Below, piece by piece: positions 871 through 63,090 of a stretch of DNA of 64,000 nt. The stretch comes from Blastocatellia bacterium (GTDB lineage Bacteria; Acidobacteriota; Blastocatellia; UBA7656), in assembly GCA_035258805.1 (NCBI GenBank), contig DATFWY010000003.1, positions 18,839 through 82,838 on the forward strand, written 5' to 3'. Position 1 is the first letter of the stretch. Each line of letters begins with the position of its first letter. The notes under the pieces are model-generated. The model made no database searches. It was not told where the DNA came from and worked only from the letters and a program-made list of their open reading frames with translations. A program made the translations under genes and the position numbers.

Positions 871-883
871 AAGAGCTCAGAAG

Positions 884-1028
884 TACCGTAGACTGTCTGG
901 TCTGCGGAAGACGTATCGTAGACTGTCTAGTCTGCGGAAGACGTACCGCAGACTGTCTAGTCTGCGGCGCTCGTCGTCTAATCCAGTCAAAGGCATTGTC
1001 TTCACCTCCGCAGACTAGACAGTCTACG
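884..1028. repeat. Palindromic repeat family A, copy 1. Three direct ~30-bp units (GTAYCGYAGACTGTCTRGTCTGCGGAAGAC) are followed, after a ~40-bp spacer, by one inverted copy (CCGCAGACTAGACAGTCTACG).
   Basis: Read directly from the sequence. It sits in the gap between the TPR gene stop (870) and the TonB receptor stop (1102), which are convergent. It could act as a bidirectional terminator. Confidence 0.8.
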
Positions 1029-1101
1029 CTACACTAGAACAGAGAGGCAGGCCCAAGCCCGCCTCTCCGCTCTTCACATACTTTCGAGTGGCAGAGATTT
1101 C

Positions 1102-4100
1102 CTACCACCGGAATCTAACAGACAATTGAATCGTCCGAGGCAGATCGGTTCCCGCCGGATCACCAAGTCCCTGAAGCGACGGTCCAAAGATCGGCGTCAA
1201 AACATCGCGGCTCACGCGGCCGCTCTGTAGATCCTGAATCTTCAGAATCCGCCCATCCAACCCGACATACTGGCCTGTATGGGCATTGAGGCAAACGCGG
1301 CAATTGGGATCCGCGGAAGGCGCCATCAGACTCAGAACATCATTGGTGTTGAACAATAAGAACAGCGGGTGGTTGAAGATGTTGAAAATGTCAGCCTTCA
1401 ACTCCAACCGCATACTTTCTCGGATTGGGAATGCCTTGATGAACGACATATCGAAACGAAAATACGGATCACCTTTTCCGGCATTTCGAACCAGGTTGCC
1501 GTTTACAAACTGGAAATCCACCAGATCGCCAGTGAACGTATCAATCGATCCGCGTGGATCAGCGTCCGCAGGCGCGAGGAAAGTGGTCTGCGGACAGGCG
1601 CATACGGCTCGACCGGCTTCACTCACATTCAGATTCGTTCCGAAAGCGGAGGCAATATTCGTAGAAATCAGAGTGCCGTCCGGCAGTACATTCGGGCGCT
1701 GTTGACTTTCGTTGCCGGCTCCGAAGAACGCCGATGTGGCGAACGGTACGTCTCCTGTCGAGACGGGGTAAGGCCTTCCCGATTGGAGCTGTCCTATAAC
1801 ACCGATCGTCCAGTTGTTGACTACATGTTTGATGTACGACGCTTGAGTGAGATTTTCGGTATCCCAGACGAACCCGAAGTTGCCTTGATGCCGAGTGTCA
1901 CTTTGAGCGAGCGCACGCTCCGCGCGAACGTTGGTCACATCGCCGGGCTCGGAAAGGCCGAAGAAATCCTCCGATGATGAGAGCTGCTTCGACAACACGT
2001 AACCACCCTGGAATTGGAAGTGATGTGAGAGTCGCTTCGTAGCGCTTGCCACCAACCCGTGATAGGCAGAGGTACGGGAGTTCTCGTTTGTGCGGACTGC
2101 GTCCAATCGTTCATCTGGTCTCTGACCGAAGTAGAAATACCCTGGGTGACGCGGATCCGCTTTGATGATTGGGAAGTTGGTGTCGCGTTCGCCAAACAAC
2201 CCGTACCCAAGCACCCCGATATAACCGACATCAAACACAAAAGTTCGACCGATCTGCCGGCTTATCGAGAAGTTGAAGTGACGAACTTCCGGATTGTGAA
2301 GGTCATTCGCTATTGGGCGTACTCGCCCGAAGAACCCGGGTCTCCGGAGCGATGCAAGGAAACTATCCGGCGGCCGATTCGGGTAGAACGCGAGCACTGA
2401 GGGTTGAGTAAATGTCGTGGTGAACAGATTCACGCCGTCGAAGTTCAGTGAATCCAACGACACATTAAGATACGCAAGCTGGGTTACTTCGGCAAAAGCA
2501 GCGCGTACGACGGTTTGGTCCGGGTTTCCGAATAGCGTGTGCAGGAAACCGTTCTCATAATGCGGGCTCCAAGCCAACCCTATTCGGGGCTGGAAGTTGT
2601 TATGGTCGGACGAGCAGGCCGGTACTATCCCGTTTCCCTGAAGACATCCGCCCTTCACATCGGACTTCACCGTGCCTCCTTTGAATGCTCCGTCTTCAAG
2701 GTCATAACGCACCCCGTAGTTCAACGTGAGGTTCGACCTTATTTTCCACGTATCCTGAACGTAGAAGCCGTAGATGTTGTCTGTGGCGTCAACCTGCGCC
2801 GGGCCAATTCCGACCTGGAACTGTGTTGGAAGGCCAGGATCGGGAGCAGGACGCGGGAAACCTTTGTAAAGACCGAAATGGAACTGGGTGAACAGAGAGA
2901 AGTACGGGAAGTGACTGATGTTGAACCCGGTCTTCACCGTATGCGCGCCGTGGGTCCAGGAAAGATTATCAATAAACTGGTAGCGATTCTGATCGGCACC
3001 CTGTGGGCAGCAGAACGCAGCTCCAACGTAAAAGTTCGCGCCTTGCTGGCCGGGTAATTCGCTCTTTGTCGGCGTCTGACTCAGAAGCCGATGCCAAAAG
3101 AAGCGTCCTTCATTCACGATATGCTGCGTCGGCGTCGAGGTCAGCGAAACATTGAGCGTGTGATCGTGAACGACCTGCGATACCAGCGATTCAGGCGCGG
3201 CAAAATTCGCGATCTGTACCAGCAAATTGTCGGTGAGATCACGTTGAACATTGAACCGCGCGGATATGCTGTGATTTGTGGAGAGCTTATGATCGACTCT
3301 TGCGGACCACAAGAGCTCCTTAGTCGGCTGGCTGAGATTTATTGAACCGCCGGGCGGAGTCAATTGCAACGGGACTGCCTGGCGGACCTGTTCATAACTA
3401 GCAAACCAGAACGTTCTGTCCTTTATGAAAGGTCCTCCCGCAGTGAACCCGCCTTCGTACTTATGGAACGGCGCTCGACGAAAGTTAGCCGGGTCGCTGG
3501 TGTTGTAAAAAAAGTTGGAAGCAGTCAAGTTCCGACCGCGGGTGTAGTAGTGGCCGTCTCCATGAAAGGCGTTTGTCCCGGACTTGGTAATCACGTTAAG
3601 GACGACGCCGCCAGACTGCCCATACTCAGCGTTGTAGCTGTTGGTCAGCACCTGGAACTCTTTCACTTCTTCAACCGAGGCTCCGAGTCCGTTGCGGGCG
3701 GAGACAACCTGATCAGAGATCGTCCCACCGTCGATGTTGACCTGAATGCCTCGATTGTTCACCGCGCCTGGGCCGATGAGATCACTCGAAACAGTCGTGA
3801 AGTCGTACTTTACGCCAGGGGCGATTCCCGCCAGACTGGCGTAATCATTTGCTACGCCGCCGATGGCATTGAAGCTTGTAGTAGTCGGAAGCGTTGCGAC
3901 TTGTTTGCTGTCGACAACACTCGAGACTTCGGTCTTTGATGTTTCAACCAGCGCCTCGGCGGCGGTTACATCCACCGTCGCTGTCGTGCCGGTGACCACA
4001 AGACCGAAATTTACGTCTCGCTGTTCGCCAACTTGCAATCTCACAGCTTTTGCTTCCGCCTTCGCGAAGCCTTGTGCTTCGACGAAGACATCGTAAACTC

Positions 4101-4329
4101 CGGGCTGCATGTTTCCGAATCTGTACAATCCTTCGGAAGTTGACTTGGTGGTTCTCTCAATGCCAGTTTCAACGTTTCTGGCCGTAACCGTAGCGTTAGA
4201 CACCACTGCGCCCTGAGGATCCAGGACGGAACCAACGATCGTTGCAGTTGCTGTTTGTGCGTAGCTGACAGCTATTGTCGAAGCGCATAGCGCAGCCACC
4301 ATAAGCACACTCATGGTTCTTTTGGCCAT
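1102..4329 (-). CDS. TonB-dependent outer-membrane receptor with an N-terminal carboxypeptidase-regulatory-like domain (Oar-like)
   Basis: Signal peptide MAKRTMSVLMVAALCASTIAVSYA begins at ATG 4329, with AAGGAG 9 nt upstream. The CarboxypepD_reg-like segment is TATIVGSVLDPQGAVVSNATVTARNVETG...GLYRF. The body is a long beta-barrel-like sequence. The C-terminus ends ...IQLSVRFRW, an aromatic terminal residue typical of TonB-dependent receptors. Confidence 0.8.
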   Translation of the reverse strand: MAKRTMSVLMVAALCASTIAVSYAQTATATIVGSVLDPQGAVVSNATVTARNVETGIERTTKSTSEGLYRFGNMQPGVYDVFVEAQGFAKAEAKAVRLQVGEQRDVNFGLVVTGTTATVDVTAAEALVETSKTEVSSVVDSKQVATLPTTTSFNAIGGVANDYASLAGIAPGVKYDFTTVSSDLIGPGAVNNRGIQVNIDGGTISDQVVSARNGLGASVEEVKEFQVLTNSYNAEYGQSGGVVLNVITKSGTNAFHGDGHYYTRGRNLTASNFFYNTSDPANFRRAPFHKYEGGFTAGGPFIKDRTFWFASYEQVRQAVPLQLTPPGGSINLSQPTKELLWSARVDHKLSTNHSISARFNVQRDLTDNLLVQIANFAAPESLVSQVVHDHTLNVSLTSTPTQHIVNEGRFFWHRLLSQTPTKSELPGQQGANFYVGAAFCCPQGADQNRYQFIDNLSWTHGAHTVKTGFNISHFPYFSLFTQFHFGLYKGFPRPAPDPGLPTQFQVGIGPAQVDATDNIYGFYVQDTWKIRSNLTLNYGVRYDLEDGAFKGGTVKSDVKGGCLQGNGIVPACSSDHNNFQPRIGLAWSPHYENGFLHTLFGNPDQTVVRAAFAEVTQLAYLNVSLDSLNFDGVNLFTTTFTQPSVLAFYPNRPPDSFLASLRRPGFFGRVRPIANDLHNPEVRHFNFSISRQIGRTFVFDVGYIGVLGYGLFGERDTNFPIIKADPRHPGYFYFGQRPDERLDAVRTNENSRTSAYHGLVASATKRLSHHFQFQGGYVLSKQLSSSEDFFGLSEPGDVTNVRAERALAQSDTRHQGNFGFVWDTENLTQASYIKHVVNNWTIGVIGQLQSGRPYPVSTGDVPFATSAFFGAGNESQQRPNVLPDGTLISTNIASAFGTNLNVSEAGRAVCACPQTTFLAPADADPRGSIDTFTGDLVDFQFVNGNLVRNAGKGDPYFRFDMSFIKAFPIRESMRLELKADIFNIFNHPLFLLFNTNDVLSLMAPSADPNCRVCLNAHTGQYVGLDGRILKIQDLQSGRVSRDVLTPIFGPSLQGLGDPAGTDLPRTIQLSVRFRW

Positions 4330-4579
4330 AGTTGCTTGCTCCTTTCTTATCAACACGGGTCGGCGTTGGTGCGGTTGACGGACTATTTTATGACGCGAGG
4401 CACACTCCTCAACTGCCTGGTGCGAATCGAAGCAACTTGGATTCCTTCAGACGCAGAATCTCTTCGCCCTCGTGTAACGTATGTTGTTCGATTACTTAAC
4501 CCTAACGACAGACTGATGCCCGCCCGGATCTTCAAAATATTGAAGCCGAATTTCTGGAAATTCGTCCGAAAACTCGTAG

Positions 4580-7131: not shown

Positions 7132-9108
7132 ATGCCCAAAAAACCGCAATCGCGAAATTCGCGCGCGTCCACCCAGACAGCCGGCCGCACCGGTGTTGTC
7201 ACAAAGAATGTTTCAGAGGAGTCCACTGCTGAACCCGGAAGCGTCCCGCAATCTGCGCTTAGCTGGCGAAATATGTATGCGCTTGTTCCAGTTCTCCTTG
7301 CGCTACTTACGTCTGTAAACACGCTCTGGAATCACTTCGCTGGCGATGACCTGGAGCAAATTCTGAATAACTCGTTCATCAAGACCTTCAGCAACCTCCC
7401 TGCAGCGTTCACCAAAAGCGTATGGTCGTTCACAGCCGCAGACATAGTGTTTACTGTAGATCCTTATTTCAGACCGATGTTTAGCGGCTTGTTTACGATT
7501 AACTATGCGTTGTTCGGCAACAAGCCCTTTGGCTGGCATTTGATAAGCATTTTGACACATGGGGGAGTGACGTTCCTGGTTTTCATGGTTACCAGGGAGA
7601 TCACAGAACGAAACTGGGTAGCCGGACTAACCGCGTCTTTATTCGCCGTTCACCCTGTGCATGCTGAGTCTGTTGCGTGGATCTCGGGAATTACCGACCC
7701 GTTGATGAGTCTATTCCTTCTGCCTTCATTCCTTTTTTACCTGCGCTTTCGCAAAGGCGGTTCCTGGTATCTGCTCTTGCTTTCCCTGGGGTTCTTTTTT
7801 CTCGCGCTGCTTAGCAAAGAAACCGCGATTGCATTTCCACTGATTGTGGGATACTGCGAACTGTTCCACTTCCGGCGAGAAGATCAGATCACACGCCGGC
7901 TCGGTCGCGCAGCTCAACTCGTTGCTCTTTTCGTCGTTCCAGTGCTCCTTTATCTGGCGATGCGGTATTACGCGTTGGGCAACGTCATACTCAGCGCTCA
8001 GCCGCGTTATCCGTTAGGCCAATCGATACTGACGCTGCCGCTTGTATTATTGAAGTATCTCGGTTTGATGGCTATTCCGTGGGGATACAGCTATCAGCAC
8101 ACCATCACGTTTGTGGAGACTCCTGCAAGCATCGCGTTTCTGGCACCTTTAGCAGCGATCATCGCATTAGTCGTTTGTATTGTTTTCGTCAAATCAAGGT
8201 TGGTGACGTTAGGAGCTGTCTGGTTCCTGGCTATGCTGACACCTGCTCTTCTCGCATTGAGGGAATTCGAGCCTGCTTCTCTCTTGCAGGAAAGGTATCT
8301 CTACGCACCGTCCTTTGGTGTCTGTTTGATCATCGCCCTGGGAATTGAGTGGGTAACAGCGCGATTCGCATCCCCAGGTCGAGCAATCGGAGCAGCCTTG
8401 GCAGTTCTATTGATCCTTGTTTGGAGCGTAGTTCTAATCAGGCAGAACCGGACATGGAATGATACTGTCAGCGTGTACAGAAACTCTGTAGCGGTTGACC
8501 CCGACGCGCCTCTTGCTCATGTGCTGTTGGCGCGATCGTTGTACGATGCAGGTAGACCGCGCGAAGCGGAAGCAGAGGCGCGAACAACACTCAACATGGA
8601 CCCGCATTGCGCAACTGCATATCTGTCTCTAAGTTATTTCACTCGGGTGTCAGGGAAGCTCGATAAGGCTTGCGAGATACTCGAGGACGGCGTCTCAGCG
8701 GTACCTGAGAGTACAATGACTCGTCAGGATCTGGCGACAATGTATCTCAATCTAGGACTGCTGTACCAGCAACGGAAAATGTTCGACTTAGCGGAAGAAA
8801 AGCTTCTTCGATCAGCTCAGGTTTCTCCGCGGGCCGTGGCATGGTATTACACTGGACAGTTTTACTTCGAGCAGGGCCGCTATGATGAAGCCCGTGTCCA
8901 GTTTGAACAAACCTCAGCCGCGATACCGCGATGGTTTGCCCCGATACACCTCAGACTGGGTATGACGTACGAGGGTCTTAAAGATACGGCGCGAGCGCAG
9001 ATGGAATTAGAAAAATATCTGGAACTGGCTCCGGCCGATGCGCCGGATCGAGAAGCAACCCGAAAACATCTCCAGGACATGAGGGGTGTCCCGGCCAAAA
9101 ATAAGTAA
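7132..9108 (+). CDS. Polytopic membrane protein with an N-terminal PMT_2/DUF1736-like (TMTC-like glycosyltransferase-39-type) domain and C-terminal TPR repeats
   Basis: There are about 10 TM helices. The YFRPMFSGLFTINYALFGNKPFGWHLISILTHG and AVHPVHAESVAWISGITDPL motifs are characteristic of DUF1736/PMT-like proteins. The C-terminal ~200 aa are TPR-like (AHVLLARSLYDAGRPREAE...YYTGQFYFEQGRYDEA). Confidence 0.55.
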   Translation: MPKKPQSRNSRASTQTAGRTGVVTKNVSEESTAEPGSVPQSALSWRNMYALVPVLLALLTSVNTLWNHFAGDDLEQILNNSFIKTFSNLPAAFTKSVWSFTAADIVFTVDPYFRPMFSGLFTINYALFGNKPFGWHLISILTHGGVTFLVFMVTREITERNWVAGLTASLFAVHPVHAESVAWISGITDPLMSLFLLPSFLFYLRFRKGGSWYLLLLSLGFFFLALLSKETAIAFPLIVGYCELFHFRREDQITRRLGRAAQLVALFVVPVLLYLAMRYYALGNVILSAQPRYPLGQSILTLPLVLLKYLGLMAIPWGYSYQHTITFVETPASIAFLAPLAAIIALVVCIVFVKSRLVTLGAVWFLAMLTPALLALREFEPASLLQERYLYAPSFGVCLIIALGIEWVTARFASPGRAIGAALAVLLILVWSVVLIRQNRTWNDTVSVYRNSVAVDPDAPLAHVLLARSLYDAGRPREAEAEARTTLNMDPHCATAYLSLSYFTRVSGKLDKACEILEDGVSAVPESTMTRQDLATMYLNLGLLYQQRKMFDLAEEKLLRSAQVSPRAVAWYYTGQFYFEQGRYDEARVQFEQTSAAIPRWFAPIHLRLGMTYEGLKDTARAQMELEKYLELAPADAPDREATRKHLQDMRGVPAKNK

Positions 9109-18667: not shown

Positions 18668-20461
18668 TCATCGTGAAACCTCGAGTGTTCGCCTTAGAGG
18701 TCGAGCGTCGCCTTCCCGCTTCGAGAACCTTGAGACCGAACTTCTTGAACCGTGCTCATTCGTCAGCTTCTCGAGAAACATATAAAGGGCAGGATCAGTC
18801 GCCCGGAGCTCACTCCTTGTGTGCCTCCCTGTAACTCCTGCCAACGGTCTCTTCCCTTCCGAAATAAACGCTTCATAACCCTGCGCAAAGTACTCGTGCT
18901 CATTAGCCGCGGCGTAATAGTCCAAAAAGCGCCCGTCGCGCCGCGCTCGTTCGTAGAGAACCTGGATCTCCCGGCTCTCGCCTTTTCCAAACGCGACCAG
19001 GTGAACCTGATGCGCGAACTCGTGCGCGATTGTGTTGAAGCCACCGTTAGAAACCTGGTCAAGATACTCAATGCCCGACACGGTAACACGTCCCCCGACT
19101 CCTCGGAGGCTGGCATAATACCGCCCATCGAACGTCCTTTCTGACGCGAGTCCCGCCAGCGCTTGCAAATCACCAGGGCGTTGATCAAATGCAAGCAGAT
19201 AATGCCGCGCTTTAGCCTGCGCGAGTTTCGGCAGATAGACTGACAAACCTGCGACGGACGCATCGATGATCGTTCTTTGTCGAGGGGTCAAAAGATCGTA
19301 CTCGGGAAAAATCTCGCGAGTGATCGCGTAGGCGGCCGGCACGGGACGGCTGCTAAATAAAGTTGCAAAATCTGCCGCACCGATCTCGATACGCGATCGC
19401 TCGTTCATGCCACGATGCGCGCAACTCAACTCGAGGTGAGCAACAGCGCCATCCGGATCAACTGCGATCGCCTGGGTAGCTATAGAGGCGGCTCGCTCAA
19501 AATTCGCTTGCCTTAACGCGATATCGGCAAGCCCGATCAACGCACGGTAATATCGCGGCTCCAATTTGAGCGCCGACAACAACTCTTGTGATGACTGATC
19601 AAGCTTTCCTTCCTGCTTCAGCGCCTTGCCCTTAACAAAATGTATGCGCGCTTCCTCAGTTACCTTTTGCTCATACCCGTACTGACCATCAAGGTACTGC
19701 GACAGGATGCGACGCGCCGCAAAGTTGAAGGGATCGAGCGTGACTACACGACGGGCTAACGATCTGGATTCGTCGGCTTTTCCTCCAATGGACTTTGCGT
19801 AAGCGAGTACGAGGAGAGCTTCTACATTGTAGGGATCCAAATCAATCGCGCAAGCGGCGGCTTCAGCTGCTTCAGTCTCTTTGTGGCTGTCAAGGAGGAC
19901 GCGAGCAAGCAGGGCGTTGGCCGAACCATCGTCCTGGTTACGACTCAGCCAGTCGCGAAGCAAACGCACAGCGCGGGCGTACTCGTGTTGGAGCAGATCA
20001 ACCGCTGCGAGTCCGACAATTGACGCCCTCGTCTCGGAGATTGCGCGGGCACGCTCGAAGTATCCTCTTGCGCGCTGCGGCTCTTCAACGGCCAGGTAAA
20101 GCGAACCATATTCACAAAAGAGAGAGGCCGAATTGGGATGATCGGTCGCGGCATTCTCGAGTAACTTCAACGACTGCGAATACTGAAGCCGAACGCGTGC
20201 GATGTGAGCCAGACCTAACTTGGCATCGAGGTTTGCCGGCTCCAGTCGAGCGGCTTCAAGAAAGGCATCGCCGGCAGCCTCGAGTTCCCACTTGCGACGT
20301 AGTTCCTCTCCTCGCCGGAGAGCGTCGCTGACCATCTTCGATCGCAATTCGACCGGGCTTGCTTCAGAGTAAGCTAAGCCGATTGTAGTGGCTCTCTGCA
20401 TCACGATGATGCAGAGAGCCGCGGAGCAGAGCAAACGTAAAGTTTTATTGTTTTTTTTCAT
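18668..20461 (-). CDS. Secreted TPR-repeat protein with a C-terminal zincin-like (HExxH) metallopeptidase-like domain
   Basis: There is a signal peptide and multiple TPR-like repeats. The C-terminus has NGGFNTIAHEFAHQVHL (HExxH) followed by ANEHEYFAQGYEAF, a possible third-ligand Glu. Confidence 0.5.
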   Translation of the reverse strand: MKKNNKTLRLLCSAALCIIVMQRATTIGLAYSEASPVELRSKMVSDALRRGEELRRKWELEAAGDAFLEAARLEPANLDAKLGLAHIARVRLQYSQSLKLLENAATDHPNSASLFCEYGSLYLAVEEPQRARGYFERARAISETRASIVGLAAVDLLQHEYARAVRLLRDWLSRNQDDGSANALLARVLLDSHKETEAAEAAACAIDLDPYNVEALLVLAYAKSIGGKADESRSLARRVVTLDPFNFAARRILSQYLDGQYGYEQKVTEEARIHFVKGKALKQEGKLDQSSQELLSALKLEPRYYRALIGLADIALRQANFERAASIATQAIAVDPDGAVAHLELSCAHRGMNERSRIEIGAADFATLFSSRPVPAAYAITREIFPEYDLLTPRQRTIIDASVAGLSVYLPKLAQAKARHYLLAFDQRPGDLQALAGLASERTFDGRYYASLRGVGGRVTVSGIEYLDQVSNGGFNTIAHEFAHQVHLVAFGKGESREIQVLYERARRDGRFLDYYAAANEHEYFAQGYEAFISEGKRPLAGVTGRHTRSELRATDPALYMFLEKLTNEHGSRSSVSRFSKREGDARPLRRTLEVSR

Positions 20462-25790: not shown

Positions 25791-25799
25791 GTGGGAGAA

Positions 25800-25910
25800 G
25801 CAGAAGACAGAAGGCAGAAAGCAGTAGGCAGTCGCCAGAAGGCAGAAACGGCATCACGAAGCGTACCGCTTTCAGCTTTCTGCCTACTGCCTTCTGCTTA
25901 CTGCCCGCTA
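25800..25910. terminator. Imperfect palindromic region between the convergent DUF2339-like gene and acnA
   Basis: The words GGCAGAAAGC/GCTTTCTGCC and AGTAGGCAG/CTGCCTACT occur in inverted orientation. It is a likely bidirectional terminator. Confidence 0.45.
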
Positions 25911-28890: not shown

Positions 28891-29080
28891 CAGTGGTCAG
28901 TAGGCAGTACGCAGTAGGGCGGTCAGTAGTCAGCAATCTTTTATCTGTGTAATCTGCGTAATCTGCGGATAAATTCACTTGAAAGCCCACTGACTACGGA
29001 CTACGGATAACGGACTACGGATAACGGACTACGGACCAATGACTACTGACTACGAACCACTGCCTACTTCCTTCTGCTTA
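28891..29080. repeat. Complex imperfect palindrome in the acnA upstream region
   Basis: The arms are CAGTGGTCAGTAGGCAGTA and TACTGACTACGAACCACTG. The core has GTAATCTGCGTAATCTGCGGAT plus tandem ACGGACTACGGATA x3. Confidence 0.7.
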
Positions 29081-30000
29081 CCGCTTTCTGTTTTCTTTAG
29101 TTCATCGATTCCAATTGAGCTAGATCGAATGTGAAGATCGCGCTGCGGAAATGGTATTTCGATTCCGTGCTTCCGAAATGATCGCTCGATAGCAAAATTG
29201 ACGCGACTGCGAATAATTGCCTGATCGCGCGGTTCGTCTATCCATACGCGTATCTGCAGTTTCAACGCGGAGTCACCGAAACCATCGAAATGCACCTGGG
29301 GCGCCGGCTCGCTCAATATCTCTTCAACGGACTCGGCCGCCTCGATCAGCGCCTCTGCAGCCTTTTTGAGGTCGCTCGTGTACGCGACCCCAACCGGAAT
29401 GTTTAATCGCACATTCCGATCTCCAAAAGAGAAGTTCACGAATTTATTTTGTACCAGCTTGGAGTTCGGCAGGATCACAGCCATATTCTCATTTGTAACA
29501 ATCATTGTTGAGCGCAAATTGATATTCTTGACGCGTCCTTCTACACCGCCGTCAAGCTCGATCCAGTCGCCGATACGGACCGGTCTCTCAAACAACAGAA
29601 TGAAACCCGAGGCGATATCTGATGCCACGTACTGTAGCCCGAAACCGATGCCAACAGACAAGAACCCGACAATAACAGCAACGCTGGTGAGATCAACGTT
29701 GAACCCAATCTTTACCGCGTACAAGATCCCTAACGAGATGATCAAGTAATGAACAAGTCTAAGAAGCGTGTATTGAAGGCCGAGCTCGATTCGAAATTTG
29801 GGAAGGACGCGCTTCTGCAAAATACGTCGGGTGAATCGCGAGATGAGAGCTGCGATGCAGAAAACCAAAATCAGTAAGAACAGGCTTATGATCGAAACTC
29901 GAAACGAACCTCCCTGCTCGATCAATGGATAGTTCAAGTAACGTAAGACCCGCTCGAACAAGCTTTCCTGCAGGATTAAGGTCGACGGATATTGCACCAA
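29050..30000 (-). CDS. Small-conductance mechanosensitive channel (MscS family)
   Basis: The TM3 pore helix plus beta-domain signature is SVAVIVGFLSVGIGFGLQYVASDIASGFILLFERPVRIGDWIE...GRVKNINLRSTMIVTNEN...LPNSKL. The start is TTG or GTG near 30000, with AGGAGA upstream. Confidence 0.85.
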   Translation of the reverse strand: MVQYPSTLILQESLFERVLRYLNYPLIEQGGSFRVSIISLFLLILVFCIAALISRFTRRILQKRVLPKFRIELGLQYTLLRLVHYLIISLGILYAVKIGFNVDLTSVAVIVGFLSVGIGFGLQYVASDIASGFILLFERPVRIGDWIELDGGVEGRVKNINLRSTMIVTNENMAVILPNSKLVQNKFVNFSFGDRNVRLNIPVGVAYTSDLKKAAEALIEAAESVEEILSEPAPQVHFDGFGDSALKLQIRVWIDEPRDQAIIRSRVNFAIERSFRKHGIEIPFPQRDLHIRSSSIGIDELKKTESGKQKEVGSGS

Positions 30001-30138: not shown

Positions 30139-30268
30139 CTTCCGGCGTAATCTGCGTCATCTGCGCCACCTGCGGATGGTCGCAGTTGTTGAAGGCTTAG
30201 ACCCAACCATCCACAGATTACGCAGATGATAAGAACCCGAACGCCGTTCTGGTGATAACTTTCCGGCG
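30139..30268. repeat. MITE-like hairpin element with ~25-bp inverted arms, flanked by an imperfect 8/9-bp direct repeat
   Basis: The arms are GTAATCTGCGTCATCTGCGCCACCTGCGGATGGT (30148-30180) and ACCATCCACAGATTACGCAGATGA (30207-30230). The flanking repeats are CTTCCGGCG (30139-30147) and TTTCCGGCG (30260-30268). Confidence 0.6.
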
Positions 30269-30891: not shown

Positions 30892-32133
30892 ATGCGAATC
30901 AGCACACTCGCTTTTGCAAACTTACGGCGCCGGAAAGGCAAAGCCGTTTTCCTGATCATCGGAATTGCCATCGGTATAGGCACTGGCGTTGCCCTGCTAA
31001 GCCTCAGCACGTCAATCAAAGAAGAGATAGGCTCGCAGCTCGACCGGTTCGGCGCGAACATAGTTGTCGTTCCGCAATCAAACAGCCTGTCCCTGGACTA
31101 CGGCGGGCTTTCGGTATCCAGCGTCTCGTTCGATGTGAAACAGCTCAGAACCGAAGACGCGGCGAGCGTCCTGCAAATACCCTATGCAAATCGTATCAGT
31201 AACATTTCGCCGAAGCTGCTTGGAGCAGTTCGCGTCGAAGGACGCGAGGTGCTTTTGGCCGGCGTTGATTTTGACAGCGAGCTCGTCCTGAAACGCTGGT
31301 GGCAAGTCGCCGGGAAAAAACCTGAAAATGACCAGCAGGTGCTCGTCGGCTACGAAGCAGCACGCGCGCTGTCCCTGATCGAACCAACATCTTCAACACA
31401 GCCGCCTCACGTTTCTCACGGAGGTTCGCACCAGCCCGATGAAAACCAGTTTCAATTCAAAATCGTACGTAATCATTTGACTATTGCAGATCAGGATCAC
31501 GAGATAGCCGGAGTTATTTCGCAGACCGGCGGGCCCGAAGATCAGATGATTTTTGGATCGCTGGGTCACGTCCAGCGCCTGCTCAATAAGCCGGGGCAAT
31601 TGAGCCTGATCGAGGTCAGCGCTCTATGCAAGGACTGTCCGATCGGCGACATAGTCTCGCAGATCAGCGAACAGATTCCTCATGCAAAAGTATCAGCAAT
31701 TCAGCAGTCAGTGCGCGCAAGATCAGAAACGGTGGGGCGGCTGACTCGATTCTCGGCGGCGGTTTCCGCCGTGGTACTCGTGATCGGCGCATTGATGATC
31801 TTTACTACAATGACCGGATCAGTGATTGAACGAACCAAAGAAATCGGCGTTCTGCGAGCAATCGGCTTTCGCCGCGCTCACATTATCAAAGGCTTGTTGA
31901 TTGAAGTTTCGGTTATTGGTCTGCTCGGCGGGTTGCTGGGATGGGGCGTCGGACTGCTTGCGAGCTGGATGGCGCTACCTTACTTTTCGGAAACCAGAAT
32001 CCCGTTTGAACTAAAGCCGGTGCTTGGCATTGTGGCAATGGCCGCCGGCTTGATCATCGGATCGATCAGCAGCTTTTACCCGATAGTTCGCGCATCGCGG
32101 CTCGATCCGTCAGAAGCCGTGCGTTACGTTTGA
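30892..32133 (+). CDS. ABC transporter permease, FtsX/MacB-like
   Basis: The N-terminus is FANLRRRKGKAVFLIIGIAIGIGTGVAL. A large periplasmic domain follows. The C-terminal FtsX 4-TM bundle is present (ERTKEIGVLRAIGFRRAHIIKGLLIE). Confidence 0.8.
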   Translation: MRISTLAFANLRRRKGKAVFLIIGIAIGIGTGVALLSLSTSIKEEIGSQLDRFGANIVVVPQSNSLSLDYGGLSVSSVSFDVKQLRTEDAASVLQIPYANRISNISPKLLGAVRVEGREVLLAGVDFDSELVLKRWWQVAGKKPENDQQVLVGYEAARALSLIEPTSSTQPPHVSHGGSHQPDENQFQFKIVRNHLTIADQDHEIAGVISQTGGPEDQMIFGSLGHVQRLLNKPGQLSLIEVSALCKDCPIGDIVSQISEQIPHAKVSAIQQSVRARSETVGRLTRFSAAVSAVVLVIGALMIFTTMTGSVIERTKEIGVLRAIGFRRAHIIKGLLIEVSVIGLLGGLLGWGVGLLASWMALPYFSETRIPFELKPVLGIVAMAAGLIIGSISSFYPIVRASRLDPSEAVRYV

Positions 32134-32218
32134 TCTTTGCGCCCTCGCGTCTTTGCGACTCTGCGTTACGTGAAGGTATTTCATAGCCGCCTAATCGGTC
32201 TAACGATTTCAACCCCTC

Positions 32219-35206: not shown

Positions 35207-35318
35207 CAGGGTCTGGTGAGAACTGAATCTGTGCCTTTGCGTCTTTGCGACTTAACGGCTTTGCGTTTATAGCGTCATTGTTGCCGAATACATTGACCAG
35301 CCTCCCAGCGATCACTCA

Positions 35319-36419
35319 TCACAAATCTGCCGCACTCGGCAAACCCGCGATCGAGCGCGCGGCGCGGACAGCACGAAGAACGGCTTGCGCGACCGCCTCA
35401 GCTGCAAGCGCTCCTATTAATGTTAGATTCGCCGTCTTCGAAGACTTGCCGGTTGCCAGCGCAAACATAGTGTCGCCATCAAAAGCCGTGTGAACCGGAT
35501 TAATTGTCCGAGCCAATCCGTCGTGCGACATCTGAGCAACCTTTGAAGCCTGTGTCTTCGTTAACACGACATCAGTGGCAACAACTCCAATCGTAGTAGC
35601 CGTGCCCTCGAGCGCGGGCGGCAATGCCTCACCTCTGAGAATCGCGGCCATCGAATTGACTAACGCCTTGCCATCTTTTGTGCGAGCTCCTGCTACCGGT
35701 TTTCCGTTTGCGGGATCGTAGACATCACCGATTGCGTTTACAGCCACGATCGCGCCAACCTTGATTCCGTTGAGCTTGATACACGACGTACCTATGCCGC
35801 TCTTCATCGCACGGGCCATTCCAAAAAGCTTACCCACCGTTGCTCCCGCTCCTGCTCCCACATTGCCCTCGGCGGGAGGTGTCGGGGCGGCCGCCTTGCA
35901 TGCTTTGTAGCCGGCTTCTGCGTCGGGACGGATCTTCGCGTCGCCAACGCTGAGGTCAAAGAGAATCGCCGCCGGAACTATCGGCACTCTAGCTACCCGC
36001 ATGTCGAAGCCAATTCCATGCTCTTCAAGCCAACGCATCGCACCGCTGGCTGCTTCGAGTCCGAAAGCGCTTCCTCCGGCAAGCATGATGGCGTGGACAG
36101 TCTGAACTGTATTGATTGGATTGAGCAGATCAGTATCACGCGTTCCCGGCGCTGCACCGCGAACATCGACACCTGCTACGGCGCCTTCCTCGGTCAGGAT
36201 TACGGTGCAACCCGTTGGCCTCCGCGAATCAGTGAAATGTCCAACCTTAACTCCGGCGACATCGGTAATAGAACCCTGGTCTTCGAGCAGGAAGCCAGTT
36301 CCAAACGTTGCGGCGTCGCCCACAATGCCTGCGCCGGTGGCGGCAAGAGCGCCGCCGATAACTTCGCGCCTCGTGGGTTTTGATTTCACGTGTTTCAACC
36401 TCCAGATCCGTACAACCAC
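35319..36419 (-). CDS. Peptidase S58 (DmpA/L-aminopeptidase D-Ala-esterase family), probable Tat signal
   Basis: KVGHFTDSRRPTGCTVIL...GVDVRGAAPGTRDTDLLNP...LAGGSAFGLEAA matches DmpA/P1-type aminopeptidases. The N-terminal ...KPTRREVIGGALAATGAG is twin-arginine-like. Confidence 0.75.
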   Translation of the reverse strand: MVVRIWRLKHVKSKPTRREVIGGALAATGAGIVGDAATFGTGFLLEDQGSITDVAGVKVGHFTDSRRPTGCTVILTEEGAVAGVDVRGAAPGTRDTDLLNPINTVQTVHAIMLAGGSAFGLEAASGAMRWLEEHGIGFDMRVARVPIVPAAILFDLSVGDAKIRPDAEAGYKACKAAAPTPPAEGNVGAGAGATVGKLFGMARAMKSGIGTSCIKLNGIKVGAIVAVNAIGDVYDPANGKPVAGARTKDGKALVNSMAAILRGEALPPALEGTATTIGVVATDVVLTKTQASKVAQMSHDGLARTINPVHTAFDGDTMFALATGKSSKTANLTLIGALAAEAVAQAVLRAVRAARSIAGLPSAADL

Positions 36420-36507
36420 GTAGTAACGATTTCAGTCGCTCTCTCTTCCAGGTAGTAGCGACTTCAGTCGTTCTGAGCAAGTAATGAGGTACTCGCTACG
36501 ACTGATG

Positions 36508-36578
36508 TACCGTAGACTGTCTAGTCTGCGAAATTTTACGAATTCACAGACATCCGCAGACTGGACAGTCTACGGTAC
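36508..36578. repeat. Palindromic repeat family A, copy 2
   Basis: GTACCGTAGACTGTCTAGTCTGCG-N24-CGCAGACTGGACAGTCTACGGTAC. The right arm overlaps the M20 stop at 36570 and is terminator-like. Confidence 0.8.
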
Positions 36579-37850
36579 GTCACTCCCAATCAACCGCATC
36601 GCACCAATCGCCATCGCTTTGCACGCATCAGTCAGGTGTTCTATCTCACAATATTCATCAGGTTGATGCGCCAGTTTTAGTATACCGGGACCATACGCTA
36701 TGCACTGCTCGATGCCGGCAATTCGAGCGAAGTGTTTCTGGTCATAAGTGCCGGGACTCGCAATCAGCGGAGTCTCACGACCCACTGTCTCTGTCACGAC
36801 CTGTTTCATCGTCCTCACAAGTTGAGAATCCGGCTCGGTCATGGTTGGATGCACAATCAGCTTGTCCCGAAGCTCATAATCGAGCTCCGGATCTTCTGTT
36901 CGCAGCTCCTCCATTATTTGGATGATTTCCAAACGGACATCGTCTAACGCTTCTTCGATCAAAAACCGGCGGTCGAACACGGCTCGACAGAGATCCGCGA
37001 CGCAGGGAGTCTGTGGTGAATCTGGATCCTGGCCGCCGACCAGCGAATTTACATTGATAGTGGCGCTTCGGGCACCTTCAGGTTCGACAGGCATTCGAGT
37101 CCGACGTTTGGCTAGTCTCGGCTTCAGCTGGCGTTCGATACGTTCGATAAGCCGGGCCATTCGATCGATGGCGCTGACACCCAGAAAAGGCATGCTGCCG
37201 TGCGCGATTCGCCCGCGCATAAGAACTTCAAACCAGTACACACCTCGATGACCAAGGCAAATCCTGTCATAGTCAAGAGGCTCGGTGATAATCACGTAAT
37301 CGACCTGGTCCGGTCTGATATAACCGTGCTCCGCGAGATAAGCTACGCCGGCAAAGCCTCCGCTCTCCTCGTCTACGGTAGCGCTCTGTTCGATCGAACC
37401 CGCCAGCTTAACGCCGGCGCGCCGCAGCGCTTCGATTGCAAACAACGATGCAGCGATACCGGATTTTTGATCCGTGACGCCTCGGCCGTATATCCGGCCG
37501 TCCTTTACCTCGCCCGCAAAGGGATCGAGGGTCCAGCCTGTCCCCGGCGGGACAACGTCAATGTGCCCGTTGAAGTGAAGCGTCGGGTGAAAATGCGAGC
37601 CAGGAAGACGTCCGATGACGTTGATGCGTGGATGTTTGAGGGAGCATTCGGGCCGATCCGAGACCTCGACAAAACTCACATCGTACCCGAATTCTGTAAG
37701 CTTATCTGAAACGAAATGGGCGCAATCCTTGTAGTTCTCCCCTGGTGGATTGATCGTAGGAATTCGCACAAACGCACGCAGCCAATCAACCATCTCACCC
37801 GCAAGCTCATTCACGCGAGCCACGATGTGTTCTTCAATGGTGTTTCGCAT
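36570..37850 (-). CDS. M20-family metallopeptidase (ArgE/DapE/CPG2-like)
   Basis: NGHIDVVPPGTGW...DPF...GRIYGRGVTDQKSGIAASLFAIEAL is the M20 signature, including the metal-binding His/Asp and the catalytic GxxD...K. Confidence 0.8.
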   Translation of the reverse strand: MRNTIEEHIVARVNELAGEMVDWLRAFVRIPTINPPGENYKDCAHFVSDKLTEFGYDVSFVEVSDRPECSLKHPRINVIGRLPGSHFHPTLHFNGHIDVVPPGTGWTLDPFAGEVKDGRIYGRGVTDQKSGIAASLFAIEALRRAGVKLAGSIEQSATVDEESGGFAGVAYLAEHGYIRPDQVDYVIITEPLDYDRICLGHRGVYWFEVLMRGRIAHGSMPFLGVSAIDRMARLIERIERQLKPRLAKRRTRMPVEPEGARSATINVNSLVGGQDPDSPQTPCVADLCRAVFDRRFLIEEALDDVRLEIIQIMEELRTEDPELDYELRDKLIVHPTMTEPDSQLVRTMKQVVTETVGRETPLIASPGTYDQKHFARIAGIEQCIAYGPGILKLAHQPDEYCEIEHLTDACKAMAIGAMRLIGSDVP

Positions 37851-39342: not shown

Positions 39343-39402
39343 AAGCCCTTCCTTTCACCGGTTTCGGATGCTTAATGATTCGAAGAGTGGCTACTCCACT
39401 TA

Positions 39403-39510
39403 ATTACGAATTTATTCGTTATGATTCAAAATTCAACGGACCTTAATCAAAACGAATAAATTCGTTACTACGTGGAATAAATCAAAACGAATAAATTCGT
39501 TACTACGTGG
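39403..39510. repeat. Direct repeats (2.5x) of ATCAAAACGAATAAATTCGTTACTACGTGG, which contain the palindromic word ACGAATAAATTCGT
   Basis: Read directly from the sequence. It lies between the aminotransferase start and the cofE stop. The same word recurs at 49085-49320 and 55042-55110. Confidence 0.8.
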
Positions 39511-39540
39511 AAGAGCCAATAGTATCACAGGACTGCGGGC

Positions 39541-40293
39541 TCATCGAAACAGATCAAGCTCGGGAAGACGAATCAGCTCGCGGCCTGAGCCCTCACTCGA
39601 CTGATATTCGTATCCCCGAATAATGACGACAGGAACTTCCGCACTCTTCTTCATCACCAACTCTGCAGCCGACGCAAGCTCGTCAGCAACCGCGATTACC
39701 GTTACCCTCAAAGGATTCCCGTGCGAATCCATCTGTCCGCGATAATCGATCAGGGATGCCATTCCAGAAACTCCAAGCGCTACGTTCGCGAGACCCTCGC
39801 GCCAGGGGCGGCCGAACGTGTCTGAGATGATCACGGCGATGCTAACACCAAAGGCAGCTTCCAGGGCCGATCGAATCAAACGTGCCGATGAATCGGGGTC
39901 TTTGGGCAGGAGCGTAACGATACCATCACCAACGTTCGATGTATCGACACCAGCGTTCGCACAAATGAATCCATGTTCCGTTTCTGAAATCAGGATCCCG
40001 CGTTCCATACGCACAATGCGCTTCGATTCGCTCAGCACGACTTCGACCACTCGGGGATCCTTATCGTAGGCTTTGGCCCACTCGAGAGCGCGATCGCCCG
40101 GTTCAATTGATTCGAGCCTGACCAGGCGACCTTCGGCCTTCGATACGATCTTCTGAGCAACGACCAGAACATCATTATTCGGGAGTTCGATTACAGAGTT
40201 GCGTAAGGCGCTGATGATCAGAGCTCCGACATCGTCCCCACTTTTGACCTCAGGAATCCCAGAGACTCCGATTATTTCAATTTTGTTGGTCAC
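39541..40293 (-). CDS. cofE: Coenzyme F420-0:L-glutamate ligase
   Basis: 250 aa. SGDDVGALI...NDVLVVAQKIVSKAEGRLV matches the CofE motif DGDVLVVTQKIVSKAEGR. The start is GTG at 40293. Confidence 0.75.
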   Translation of the reverse strand: MTNKIEIIGVSGIPEVKSGDDVGALIISALRNSVIELPNNDVLVVAQKIVSKAEGRLVRLESIEPGDRALEWAKAYDKDPRVVEVVLSESKRIVRMERGILISETEHGFICANAGVDTSNVGDGIVTLLPKDPDSSARLIRSALEAAFGVSIAVIISDTFGRPWREGLANVALGVSGMASLIDYRGQMDSHGNPLRVTVIAVADELASAAELVMKKSAEVPVVIIRGYEYQSSEGSGRELIRLPELDLFR

Positions 40294-40416
40294 TCTCCGC
40301 GCCTCTGCGTCTTTGCGTCTTTGCGTCTTTGCGTTTAAAAAAGGCCTTACAACACGCCAAAATTATCTAACGACCACAAAATTATCTACCGACAAAATTC
40401 TCTAGCGACGACAAAA
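40294..40416. promoter_or_regulatory. cofC-cofE intergenic repeat array: (TCTTTGCG)x4, then four direct ~19-bp repeats ACAAAATTATCTAMCG
   Basis: Read directly from the sequence. It lies immediately upstream of cofE on its coding strand. TCTTTGCG words also occur at 32140, 35230 and 62950. Confidence 0.6.
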
Positions 40417-41076
40417 TTATCTAACGCCAACCTTCGTTTCCCAATATCGACTCTCCCTCAACACTTCAAACGCTCGAGTACTTCGCCCATGTTCAACCAG
40501 CAGCTCGACGTCGGCCGGTTCGTCGATGTCCAGTGCGATACGAACCTTATCTACGATCAGACACTCCACACCAACGCGCGCCGCCTCCTGTCTGTGAAGA
40601 GCAAGCGAGTTGGGCCCAAAACGAGATGGGAATAGAGCCGGTGGCGTGCGGATAATTGCATTGGTTCCGGTTCCTTCACGTGAGGGAACGAGAAGAGCAC
40701 CCGGGCACTCCAGCTCGAGAGACATGAGCGCGTCGATGTCCTCGGCCCTGACGAGCGGCAGGTCGGCTGGAAGTCGCATGACAGATTGGAAGCCTCGTTC
40801 GCTCAGCGCCCGTGAAGCCCAATCGATCGAAGCACTCTCAGATACCTGTGACTCTTCGAGCAAAATGTCCCACCCGAGCTTGCGACCATGTTCAACAGCT
40901 GGACCAAAGCTGGTTACAAGCACTACGCGGTCGGGCTTACGAGCGCCCGCAGCGGCGCGACTGACGTCCTCGAACATAGACCACGCAAGCCTTTGTCGCT
41001 CATCTTCGGACAGCAAGCCGGCAAGACGTGTCTTCGCGTGTGTGAGATCTTTGACCGGGATCAGAAGCGCTTTCAT
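40417..41076 (-). CDS. cofC: 2-phospho-L-lactate guanylyltransferase
   Basis: MKALLIPVKDLTHAKTRLAGLLSEDERQRLAWSMFEDV matches the CofC/FbiD N-terminus. It overlaps cofD by 4 nt (ATGA). Confidence 0.75.
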   Translation of the reverse strand: MKALLIPVKDLTHAKTRLAGLLSEDERQRLAWSMFEDVSRAAAGARKPDRVVLVTSFGPAVEHGRKLGWDILLEESQVSESASIDWASRALSERGFQSVMRLPADLPLVRAEDIDALMSLELECPGALLVPSREGTGTNAIIRTPPALFPSRFGPNSLALHRQEAARVGVECLIVDKVRIALDIDEPADVELLVEHGRSTRAFEVLRESRYWETKVGVR

Positions 41077-49103: not shown

Positions 49104-49320
49104 AATTCGTTCAGCGTTTGGCGTTCAACGTTCAGGGTTTAGCGTTCCTGGTTTCTAGTTTCTGGTCTCATCTGCGGATAGTCAACGAACTCAGCGCGCG
49201 CTATGCCAGACCTATCCGCGGATTACGCAGATGAGATCAGGACAGAGAATTAAGCTAAACCGCGAAAGTTGAACCCTGAACGCTTAGCGGTGAACGCTGT
49301 CAAACCCTGAACGAAATTTT
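49085..49320. repeat. Composite nested palindrome between the convergent folK and sensor kinase genes
   Basis: The outer arms are GAACGAATAAAATTCGTTCAGCGTT...GGTTTAGCG and CGCTTAGCGG...GAACGAAATTTTATTCGTTC. The inner arms are TCTCATCTGCGGATAG and CTATCCGCGGATTACGCAGATGAGA. Confidence 0.75.
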
Positions 49321-55042: not shown

Positions 55043-55110
55043 TAACGGATTTATTCGTTTGCGTGAGACCAACCTAATTACGAATCAGAACCAATAAATT
55101 CGTTACTACG
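55042..55110. repeat. Palindrome GTAACGGATTTATTCGTT...AATAAATTCGTTAC between convergent genes
   Basis: Read directly. It shares the ACGAATAAATTCGT word with the 39403 and 49085 elements. It is a likely bidirectional terminator. Confidence 0.7.
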
Positions 55111-55142
55111 TCGAAAACATGGTCTTTCTTCAGGCTGAGCAG

Positions 55143-56432: not shown

Positions 56433-56947
56433 GATGAGCTCCTGTTAAACGTATTCACAACGTGCAGCCTGGGGCTTCGATTCGTCTCGATTAAAGACAT
56501 ATCGCTTTGTCCGACATACTTCCGTTTGTCTGTTTTTCTCGCAATATCGTCACGCCTCGTCACATCCAGCGCACGAAACCAATCTTAGGCAACCTCAGTG
56601 CCGATGTATTCGATCGAGTAACTCGGTACGGCAATCGTTAGGCGAGCTTGCCCGGGTAGCTAATTGGAGCTATCGTGTGGACGAATTGGAAGGAGTAAAG
56701 TTCCTCTTGGACCTGAGTCGGAGACTTGGCTCCTCAGCAGTACAGGTGCTTGTATGTTTGAAATGGCCAAACGTTTTCTGACGCAATTTTTCGCACGCTC
56801 ACCACGCAACGAAGGTAAGCAAGATGACCCGCCGGATGATCGTGATGCGGGAATACCAGTCCGCGTCAGACGGGGTCCTCCGGATCGCGGTTCGGTGGTC
56901 GCAGTAGCGGAACCGGATGATGACTAAGTATCAGCTCACGTATTAAC

Positions 56948-57058
56948 GACTTCGATGTAACGTAGACTGTCCGGTCTGCGGATTGTGGCAACAAAATCTA
57001 GCTTTTAAAGGTATGGGGTTCCTCAGCAGACCGGACAGTCTACGGTACATCTGAAGTC
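56948..57058. repeat. Palindromic repeat family A, copy 3 (~32-bp inverted arms, 46-bp loop)
   Basis: GACTTCGATGTAACGTAGACTGTCCGGTCTGC ... GCAGACCGGACAGTCTACGGTACATCTGAAGTC. Confidence 0.8.
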
Positions 57059-57094
57059 GTTTCTACGTGAAGGAATAAAATGAAGATGCTCGGC

Positions 57095-57598
57095 CTACTT
57101 GAAACGATAGAGATCACTGGTCGAGACAGGGACATCCAACAGCTTCAAATAAAAAAAGAGCTGGTACTTGTGATTGATTAAGTGCTCAAGATTCCCAAAG
57201 AGCAGTGTAGCTACCGACTCTCCTTCGCTAACGAAAACAGTTTTAACACGGCGCTTGAGGTCGCTGTCATCGAGCAGATCAAACCCCTGTTTTATGTGAA
57301 ATGAGTAGTGACGAATCCGCGTAAGGGCCTCTTCCGTTCCGCAACAATGATTCACCGGAAGCTCCCGAAGCTCATCAAAGTGAACCAGTAACTCGGGCTT
57401 TGCCGCATACAGGGTCGCGCAAAACCCTGCCAGGCACTCGAGCAGATGTCCCAACAGATCGCACACCCGCGACGAGTCTGGATGCGGCCGCCATTCAGTT
57501 TTGCCGGATGGAATTAATTCAATAAGGTGCAGGGTGCGGTCGATCTGTTCTTCGATCTTCGCGAGGACATTAACAGCGAGCGTGTCTGATGCGCTCAT
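57095..57598 (-). CDS. DinB/YfiT-like (DinB_2) metal-dependent four-helix-bundle protein
   Basis: ...LIELIPSGKTEWRPHPDSSRVCDLLGHLLEC...HYSFHIKQGFDLL... matches the W..P......H pattern of DinB_2. The start ATG at 57598 overlaps the upstream gene's stop (ATGA). Confidence 0.45.
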   Translation of the reverse strand: MSASDTLAVNVLAKIEEQIDRTLHLIELIPSGKTEWRPHPDSSRVCDLLGHLLECLAGFCATLYAAKPELLVHFDELRELPVNHCCGTEEALTRIRHYSFHIKQGFDLLDDSDLKRRVKTVFVSEGESVATLLFGNLEHLINHKYQLFFYLKLLDVPVSTSDLYRFK

Positions 57599-62853: not shown

Positions 62854-63090
62854 AGAATTTCGTCCTTTTCTTCAGCAAATAAATCAACCCTTATTATTGG
62901 CAACCGTGTACGCTAGCCGCACGAGCAAGGAATTTCAAGGTGAGAACTGCTTAGCGACTTTGCGATTTTGCGTCTTTGCGTGAGATTGACGAACTGGTTT
63001 GCAACTTATTCCACATCAACATTGCTTGAGCCGAGCTACGCCCGGTGATAACATCGCGCGCGCTCAACACAACGCTTCGGAGCAAATAAA

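Follow-up and report, generated by a model that had tools for sequence, protein, structure and literature searches.

A probable REP-type palindromic repeat family in Blastocatellia

Introduction

A short palindromic repeat, designated here family A, occurs as eight units in the 64-kb stretch of Blastocatellia DNA that we analyzed (hereafter the window, which designates the whole of that stretch), and most likely represents a REP family of the GTAG-tagged type, copied in Blastocatellia as single-stranded DNA hairpins by a RAYT, a reading to which we assign a probability of roughly 0.7. Identification of these repeats as REPs is supported by their dispersal, their one-sided tag, a covarying hairpin, head-to-head doublets and a presence that varies between lineages. 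RAYT copying of single-stranded hairpins is established for the REPs and REPINs of Escherichia coli and Pseudomonas. By analogy, a REP-associated tyrosine (HUH/Y1) transposase (RAYT) would read the tag and the imperfect stem of family A on single-stranded DNA, and copy either units or doublets. An inserted copy would then be transcribed within a 3' or intercistronic untranslated region (UTR), as the biology of E. coli REPs suggests. REPs located in UTRs of E. coli stabilize the upstream mRNA, and a transcribed family A hairpin of high stability could likewise slow 3'-5' mRNA decay, for instance between the M20 and S58 peptidase genes of the window.

Family A units in the window

A search allowing three mismatches recovered eight units of the 20-nt core CGYAGACTGTCYRGTCTGCG at three intergenic sites of the window (Table 1), compared with 0.02 expected from shuffled sequences. 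A looser 16-nt search of the window returned the same eight units and no further degenerate copy. An earlier note on this DNA had located a word of ~24 bp and its reverse complement at these three sites, where all eight units are indeed found; the repeated word consists of GTA, a base S, the 20-nt core and a base S', the two S bases pairing with each other. As the same note described, site 1 contains three direct units, with a period of 30 nt, followed by one inverted unit after ~42 nt (between cores). Sites 2 and 3 are inverted doublets whose cores are separated by 24 and 44 nt, respectively. The 24-nt loop given for site 2 was correct, but its inverted repeat is not perfect, as the arms are complementary at 23 of 24 positions (CTAG versus CCAG). 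Similarly, the long inverted arms of site 3 do form around an inverted doublet, but they are not built from a single word: they are composite, each joining a family A unit to the outer arm of a different repeat family. As single-stranded DNA, the three sites fold into long hairpins (-28 to -50 kcal/mol; z-scores relative to shuffles, -8.7 to -13, and -8.8 to -13 for the doublets).

Table 1. Family A units and associated features in the 64-kb window (positions are those of the window; a dot means that no strand applies).
Feature	Positions	Strand	20-nt core	Remarks
Unit 1, site 1	883..907	+	887-906	Tag GTA, closing C, core CGTAGACTGTCTGGTCTGCG, closing G
Unit 2, site 1	913..937	+	917-936	Tag GTAT; direct repeat of unit 1, 30-nt period
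Unit 3, site 1	943..967	+	947-966	GTAC-CGCAGAC variant, stem fully paired
Site 1 spacer, direct units to inverted unit	968..1007	.		Non-repeated
Unit 4, site 1	1008..1032	-	1009-1028	Inverted; tag GTAG (- strand) outward; long hairpin with unit 2 or 3
Family C, two GTAG units beside site 2	36416..36475	.		GTAG-TA[AG]CGA.-loop-GTCG.T; S58-nearest unit common to L155 and L101
Unit 5, site 2 left arm	36507..36531	+	36511-36530
Site 2 doublet spacer, 24 nt	36531..36554	.		Similar, with small indels, in the 95%-identical relative L155
Unit 6, site 2 right arm	36554..36578	-	36555-36574	GTA CCG TAG, last two M20 codons and stop
Site 3 outer arm CACGTATTAACGACTTCGAT	56937..56956	+		Resembles the family C GTAG-TAACGAC repeat; lengthens the site 3 hairpin
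Unit 7, site 3 left arm	56957..56981	+	56961-56980	Tag GTAA
Site 3 doublet spacer, 44 nt	56981..57024	.
Unit 8, site 3 right arm	57024..57048	-	57025-57044	Core ends ...GCT
Site 3 outer arm, inverted partner of 56937-56956	57049..57069	-		CACGTAGAAACGACTTCAGAT on the - strand

The window has a G+C content of 52.6%. All three sites are intergenic, as had been claimed. Site 1 lies between the convergent 3' ends of a gene coding for a TPR protein (91-870, +) and an outer-membrane beta-barrel gene (1102-4356, -). Site 2 separates two co-directional genes coding for an M20 peptidase (36570-37850, -) and an S58 peptidase (35319-36419, -). Site 3, also between co-directional genes, is found 525 nt upstream of a phospholipase C-like gene, on the downstream side of a 180-aa ORF (57095-57637, -). 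The overlap of the second site with the M20 stop codon, likewise noticed earlier, extends to the coding sequence: the gene ends GAC GTA CCG TAG (D V P stop), in which unit 6 supplies GTA CCG TAG (36570-36578).

The same GTA CCG TAG is read in frame as V-P-stop of the M20 gene in L155 (about 741-749), and as V-P-stop of a small conserved ORF located after a HAD-like gene in L051 (about 7562-7576) and L070 (about 1690-1704). In L101, the M20 stop codon is provided by the GTAG of another repeat, family C. Because in-frame stops are contributed by the GTA CCG TAG of family A or by the GTAG of family C, REP insertions have altered the final codons of genes.

Of the genome loci retrieved, L052 is the closest nucleotide match of the window (83% identity), and two Blastocatellia MAGs encode proteins with 95% identity to the window protein of 58181-59590. 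A metagenome contig 99.75% identical to the window (L098) has the same site 2. Two other short-read contigs stop in or at the repeat, one at window position 36555 (L099) and one 5 nt after the M20 stop codon (L100), and these REPs therefore break metagenome assemblies.

Unit anatomy and covariation

The anatomy of family A was established from 212 units. Loci were recruited with an exact 19-nt pattern, so conservation of the core is partly a matter of ascertainment; the flanks lie outside the search pattern, and their conservation is therefore informative. The unit of ~25 nt reads GTA, S-CGTAGAC, TGTCYA, GTCTGCG-S', that is, a stem of 8 bp closing a loop of 6 nt and preceded, on its 5' side alone, by an unpaired tag. 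Across the 212 units, the tag is G in 92%, T in 92% and A in 86% at its three positions, and is confined to the 5' side. The next base, C in 53% and G in 39%, pairs with the single base located 3' of the core (G in 60%, C in 34%). Hence the tag reads GTAC in 53% of the units and GTAG in 39%, its fourth base belonging to the stem.

This closing pair covaries strongly, with 111 C-G and 71 G-C combinations against 0 C-C and 8 G-G (Fisher p = 1e-43). In a formal count over 140 distinct units, 97.3% of the cells are paired, and the observed covariation score was reached by none of 500 shuffles. A second compensatory change, from A-U to G-C, was found in two units. At stem position 3, a T.G wobble prevails (72%) over C-G (25%), T-A being almost never seen; with T opposite G at this position, the tagged strand folds better than its complement. 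The folding energy of one unit as DNA is -5.5 to -6.6 kcal/mol. In 7 of 53 scored doublets, the closing pair is G-C in one unit and C-G in the other, which leaves both small hairpins intact and the long hairpin mismatched. The small single-unit hairpin is therefore the structure under conservation.

Doublets, groups and arrays

Considering 106 sites, 55 doublets are arranged head to head with their tags outside (head-head in the terms of Di Nocera et al.), and none tail to tail. The spacers have a median of 52 nt (range 3-89 nt). Singletons account for 39 of the 106 sites, 13 of which are at contig ends, and a dozen groups complete the picture, with arrays reaching 14 units. The groups are tandem duplications of a unit together with a fixed neighboring stretch, with periods of 47 nt (L039), 32 nt (L081) and 34 nt (L075); the group of L070 duplicated a unit along with the 3' end of an ORF. 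The three direct units of site 1 are a tandem-duplication group of this kind.

Other arrangements of short repeats were considered and discarded. CRISPR arrays do not fit, as the sequence between units is itself repeated (30-nt period in the window; 32, 34 and 47 nt in L081, L075 and L039) and inverted units occur among the direct ones. On architecture, integron attC and operator sites were ruled out as well.

Distribution across genomes

An exact-pattern scan of 185,579 GTDB species genomes revealed at least 97 stretches of the family A core in at least 20 species-level genomes, so the repeat is enriched well beyond the loci of the window. Among the matches listed, nearly all come from Blastocatellia or other Acidobacteriota, many genomes gave several unrelated loci, and the flanking genes are unrelated housekeeping genes. 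ORF clustering of the 97 loci among the matches listed found no recurrent mobile-element or transposase gene near the units. As 2.9 million viral contigs yielded only three stretches, one of which is a true doublet, family A is essentially chromosomal.

Elsewhere, a Verrucomicrobia MAG (L010, 2959-5156) carries GTAG-tagged units with a slightly different core (CGCAGACT[GT]TC[CT]AGTCTGCC) next to a GCAGACA-AGAAT-GTCTGC hairpin; crude gene calls place them inside long ORFs. These units may belong to a related repeat family outside the Acidobacteriota.

Gain, loss and copying

Presence or absence of family A at an orthologous site was assessed in 80 metagenome loci encoding relatives of the M20 peptidase, many of which keep the M20-S58 order. 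Within this set, the content of the spacer varies between lineages. Family A is confined there to the window and L155, whose protein identity is 95%. In L101 (87%), the spot holds a different GTAG repeat doublet, CACGTAG-TAACGAC-TTTA-GTCGTT..., whose TAG ends the M20 gene, and in L103 yet another palindrome. The spacer is 80-95 nt long and free of REPs in L105, L111 and L120-L122, and is reduced to essentially nothing in L118, L129, L132 and L136. By comparison, L051, L070 and L074 all have family A units in the spacer after the HAD-like gene, with unit number and arrangement differing among them; all that L008 has in common with this locus is the carA-like flanking gene.

Whole doublets are also found in multiple copies. 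The genome SOY_29_metabat_494 contains a doublet in at least nine copies, all with one 55-nt spacer and ~40 nt of common outer sequence but inserted in different genomic flanks, and a doublet type with an 88-nt spacer is common to several genomes. Replication of the doublet as a unit is not seen for the three copies of the window, whose spacers differ.

Could the hairpin instead be an immobile regulatory structure of the host, such as a terminator or an mRNA 3'-end stabilizer that selection holds in fixed positions? Each of the three window sites follows at least one gene, their RNA hairpins are very stable (-49 to -81 kcal/mol), the G.U-compatible wobble favors folding of the tagged strand, and units have been kept in the same spacer of L051, L070 and L074. 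A second function as terminator had in fact been proposed in the earlier note. At the three window sites, the hairpins lack a trailing T-run, their tails consisting of GTAC and mixed sequence, and a terminator scan returned nothing at 880-1033, 36500-36585 and 56936-57076. Rfam gave no match at gathering score over the whole window, and a relaxed scan produced sub-threshold matches to generic hairpins (miRNA precursors) alone. According to crude longest-ORF calls, unidirectional, divergent and convergent spacers hold 33, 13 and 11 sites, compared with 308, 89 and 86 among all spacers of the same loci. With 13 of 57 sites against a background of 18%, divergent spacers show no clear depletion, although such crude calls make this a weak comparison; the 15 cases that they place within genes are probably mostly artefacts. 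Classical REPs are depleted from divergent spacers, which counts against family A as a classical REP. Given orientations much like the background, hairpins without a T-run and a scan without a match, a general terminator role is unsupported, as is the identification of the family A hairpin as a canonical intrinsic terminator. Fixed positions are further contradicted by the orthologous M20-S58 spacer, which is empty or occupied by other repeats in close relatives, and by identical whole elements in unrelated flanks within one genome. We therefore consider an immobile host hairpin unlikely. A role at the RNA level after insertion is compatible with a REP family copied by a RAYT, the two explanations being set apart by the claim of immobility alone.

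The earlier note had also described the repeat as a REP/MITE-type mobile palindrome. Its REP half is borne out by the one-sided tag, the covarying hairpin and the 55:0 ratio of head-to-head to tail-to-tail pairs. Its MITE half would make family A a deletion derivative of an insertion sequence with a DDE transposase, moved by cut-and-paste through terminal inverted repeats and leaving target-site duplications. Two genomes, SOY_29_metabat_494 and GFS_6523, contain a repeated element of ~170 bp built around the doublet, with inverted ends (TATAG.../...CCTATA) that can be read as flanked by TA. Nevertheless, none of 58 doublets is bordered by a target-site duplication, when direct repeats of 2-9 nt are sought at any boundary offset and the palindromic tag is set aside, and the inverted repeat of the doublets falls to near-background complementarity beyond the 4-nt tag. 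Singletons tagged on one side only, the lack of tail-to-tail pairs, spacers that vary freely in length and sequence between copies (3-89 nt), the lack of a recurrent transposase gene near the units and window copies devoid of outer TATAG termini also speak against a classical MITE. Correia elements (NEMIS) of Neisseria and other DDE-type MITEs resemble family A in that they are multi-copy hairpins of short length located between genes. TA target duplications, a fixed length and terminal inverted repeats derived from insertion sequences characterize the Correia elements, whereas family A doublets have none of these. A MITE origin is thus very unlikely.

Lastly, family A is hardly a recognition word for a DNA-binding or DNA-uptake protein, spread by recombination rather than by transposition in the manner of the Neisseria DUS and Haemophilus USS, uptake words often found as inverted pairs after genes: a 20-nt core that is nearly invariant, loop included, across many species of a class, the frequent inverted pairs and the dyad-symmetric AGAC-N-GTCT sub-motifs of the core would suit such a word, but the flip of the closing pair and the G-C/A-U swap point to selection or copying on a folded single strand rather than on a duplex, units are sparse (8 in 64 kb), a tag on one side and a strictly head-to-head arrangement are characteristic of REPs, and conservation of the loop is partly an effect of the search pattern.

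Taken together, the copies of whole doublets, the variable orthologous spacers, the spacers in which units are kept and the lack of target-site duplications indicate that family A is gained and lost over evolutionary time, is long-lived once inserted, and is copied without target duplication.

Search for a transposase

RAYT genes were sought in the window and 179 related loci (1.04 Mb) using a regular expression for the HUH motif and tblastn, with the Y1 protein of L013 and sequences for E. coli RayT and IS200 TnpA as queries. No RAYT or Y1 transposase gene was detected in the window or beside any family A unit across this 1.04 Mb. RAYTs typically occur once per genome. With about one RAYT per genome and a small sample, at most about one flanking match would be expected, and the absence therefore weighs little.

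The sole Y1 gene found (L013, 133-1116, -) codes for a 327-aa protein with the Pfam Y1_Tnp domain and a C-terminal HTH (IS200-like). It is flanked (110-135, 1119-1210) by inverted GGGGTCAGGCTTCACTTTGTTGAC repeats of the GGGGTCAG type, duplicated on one side and unrelated to family A. Given these terminal inverted repeats, the gene represents a 'TIRYT' of the kind known for Acidobacteria. Its flanking repeats match the GGGGWSAS motif of the 'TIRYT' elements reported for that phylum, and it lies 1.4 kb from a family A unit without being associated with it. Other candidates were rejected: a weak tblastn match in L023 is actually a penicillin-binding protein, and the genes that pairs of units enclose in L026 and L094 have ordinary metabolic functions.

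Comparison with known repeat systems

GTAG REPs have a one-sided tag and a stem-loop with frequent G.T pairs, 5-13 bp in the stem and 2-20 nt in the loop; head-head dimers predominate, 20-100 bp apart, clusters reflect tandem duplication that includes flanking DNA, and several families are found per genome (Di Nocera, De Gregorio and Rocco 2013, PMC3733652). Family A resembles these REPs, including SMAG of Stenotrophomonas maltophilia, in its one-sided 5' tag outside a short stem-loop and the G.T pairs of its stem, in its singletons, predominant head-head dimers, tandem groups and coexisting families per genome, and in its mainly intergenic location with occasional overlap of gene ends. It differs in its tag, which is GTA followed by a paired C or G (GTAG in 39%) where the superfamily has an unpaired GT[AG]G tetranucleotide, at one end only and 0-2 nt 5' of the hairpin, in its 6-nt loop and in its host, the Acidobacteriota. 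In the 2013 survey, Acidobacteria had tyrosine transposases flanked by terminal inverted repeats (TIRYTs) only, and zero REP families (PMC3733652); the family A core is absent from the text of that survey and from the supplementary files searched.

The RNAMotif rule of Quentin et al. (2018, PMC6006769) calls for GT[AG]G, for a basal stem of 7-20 nt in which every base is paired, and for a loop of 2-5 nt. From this strict rule, most family A units depart in their GTAC tag with a paired fourth base, the T.G pair of the stem and the 6-nt loop; a minority of GTAG-CGCAGAC units come close.

As in the REPIN-RAYT systems of Pseudomonas fluorescens and Enterobacteria (Bertels and Rainey 2011, PMC3116915; Bertels et al. 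2017, PMC5581495), two inverted units of family A form one long hairpin, the doublet is replicated whole in at least one genome, and the repeats last across species and are nearly absent from viral contigs. REPINs are, however, defined by a single-copy RAYT (PF01797) flanked by repeats, which was not seen here in 1.04 Mb, and the spacers of textbook Pseudomonas REPINs are far less variable than those of family A. In E. coli, the folded single strand is bound by TnpA-REP (Ton-Hoang 2012 and Messing 2012, cited in PMC6006769), which recognizes its 5' GTAG (summarized in PMC6006769 and PMC3733652). The REPs and BIMEs of E. coli share with family A an imperfect hairpin, a GTAG-like 5' foot and a location in 3' UTRs and intercistronic regions, but have longer, bulged stems and, in BIMEs, IHF or gyrase motifs, none of which were seen around family A.

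Finally, GTAG-15 dimers of Anabaena variabilis are embedded in TATAGGAnT...AnTCCTATA palindromes (PMC3733652). These termini are nearly the same as those of the Blastocatellia doublets bracketed by TATAGGAATCC.../...GGATTCCTATA in two MAGs. The two systems differ in REP core and phylum, and the window copies have no outer arms; the resemblance may be coincidental. The bracketed elements of ~170 bp with a doublet core, ending in TATAG(C/G)...TCC / GGATTCCTATA, were found in L011, L017, L020, L035, L042 and L073 (SOY_29_metabat_494), and in L030 and L053 (GFS_6523).

Neighboring repeats

Family A is accompanied by other repeats in the window. A second GTAG REP family (B), with the sequence CCACGTAG-TAACGAAT-TT-ATTCGTTA, is present at 39388-39518 and 55035-55115, also in head-to-head doublets, the right unit being duplicated at 39445 and 39480. 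The third (C), GTAG-TA[AG]CGAC-TTCA-GTCG[CT]T, occurs beside site 2 and in L155 and L101; in the latter, its doublet (1616-1730) takes the place held by family A in the window. The outer arms of site 3 are related to family C, as if family A sat inside a family C hairpin. A related palindrome family, GTAC-AGGCTTTAGCCTG(C), forms long inverted doublets in L103 (1860-1990), at the same site downstream of the M20 gene, and in L074 (about 4110-4230).

Intergenic tandem arrays of 7-9-mers are also found in the window at 25798-25904, 28940-29098, 30147-30174, 32120-32169, 35228-35269, 40288-40443, 49108-49299 and 62943-62984, several of them as inverted blocks able to form long hairpins. Their motifs include CAGAAGG/CTGCCTT, TAATCTGCG, ACGGACT, TTTGCGTC and CGACAAAATTATCTA, and in L105 and L120-L122 the M20-S58 spacer is filled by arrays of a similar ATCCGT type. 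At 20385-20420, the window also contains one copy of a lone GTAG placed ahead of a hairpin whose 12-bp stem is perfect (GGCTCTCTGCAT / ATGCAGAGAGCC), which may be another REP-like element.

Significance

To our knowledge, almost all work on REP and REPIN repeats has concerned Proteobacteria, and a literature search on Blastocatellia with 'extragenic palindromic' gave no result. The repeat type is ordinary and shows no new mechanism, while family A itself apparently has no earlier description. It explains why short-read assemblies of Blastocatellia soil bacteria break at such sites, warns annotators of spurious small ORFs and altered gene ends, and offers a test case in a distant phylum for studies of REPIN populations.

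More tentatively, families A, B and C could represent the visible part of an ancient REPIN-RAYT partnership that the Acidobacteriota inherited vertically. In it, a conserved trans-acting protein would have kept the 20-nt core, including the loop, almost unchanged throughout a class, and REP families would compete for the same intergenic sites, sometimes rewriting the 3' ends of genes, as in the V-P-stop endings. We regard this as a possible but doubtful extension. If true, it would represent a REPIN-RAYT system outside the Proteobacteria, the group in which such systems were characterized.
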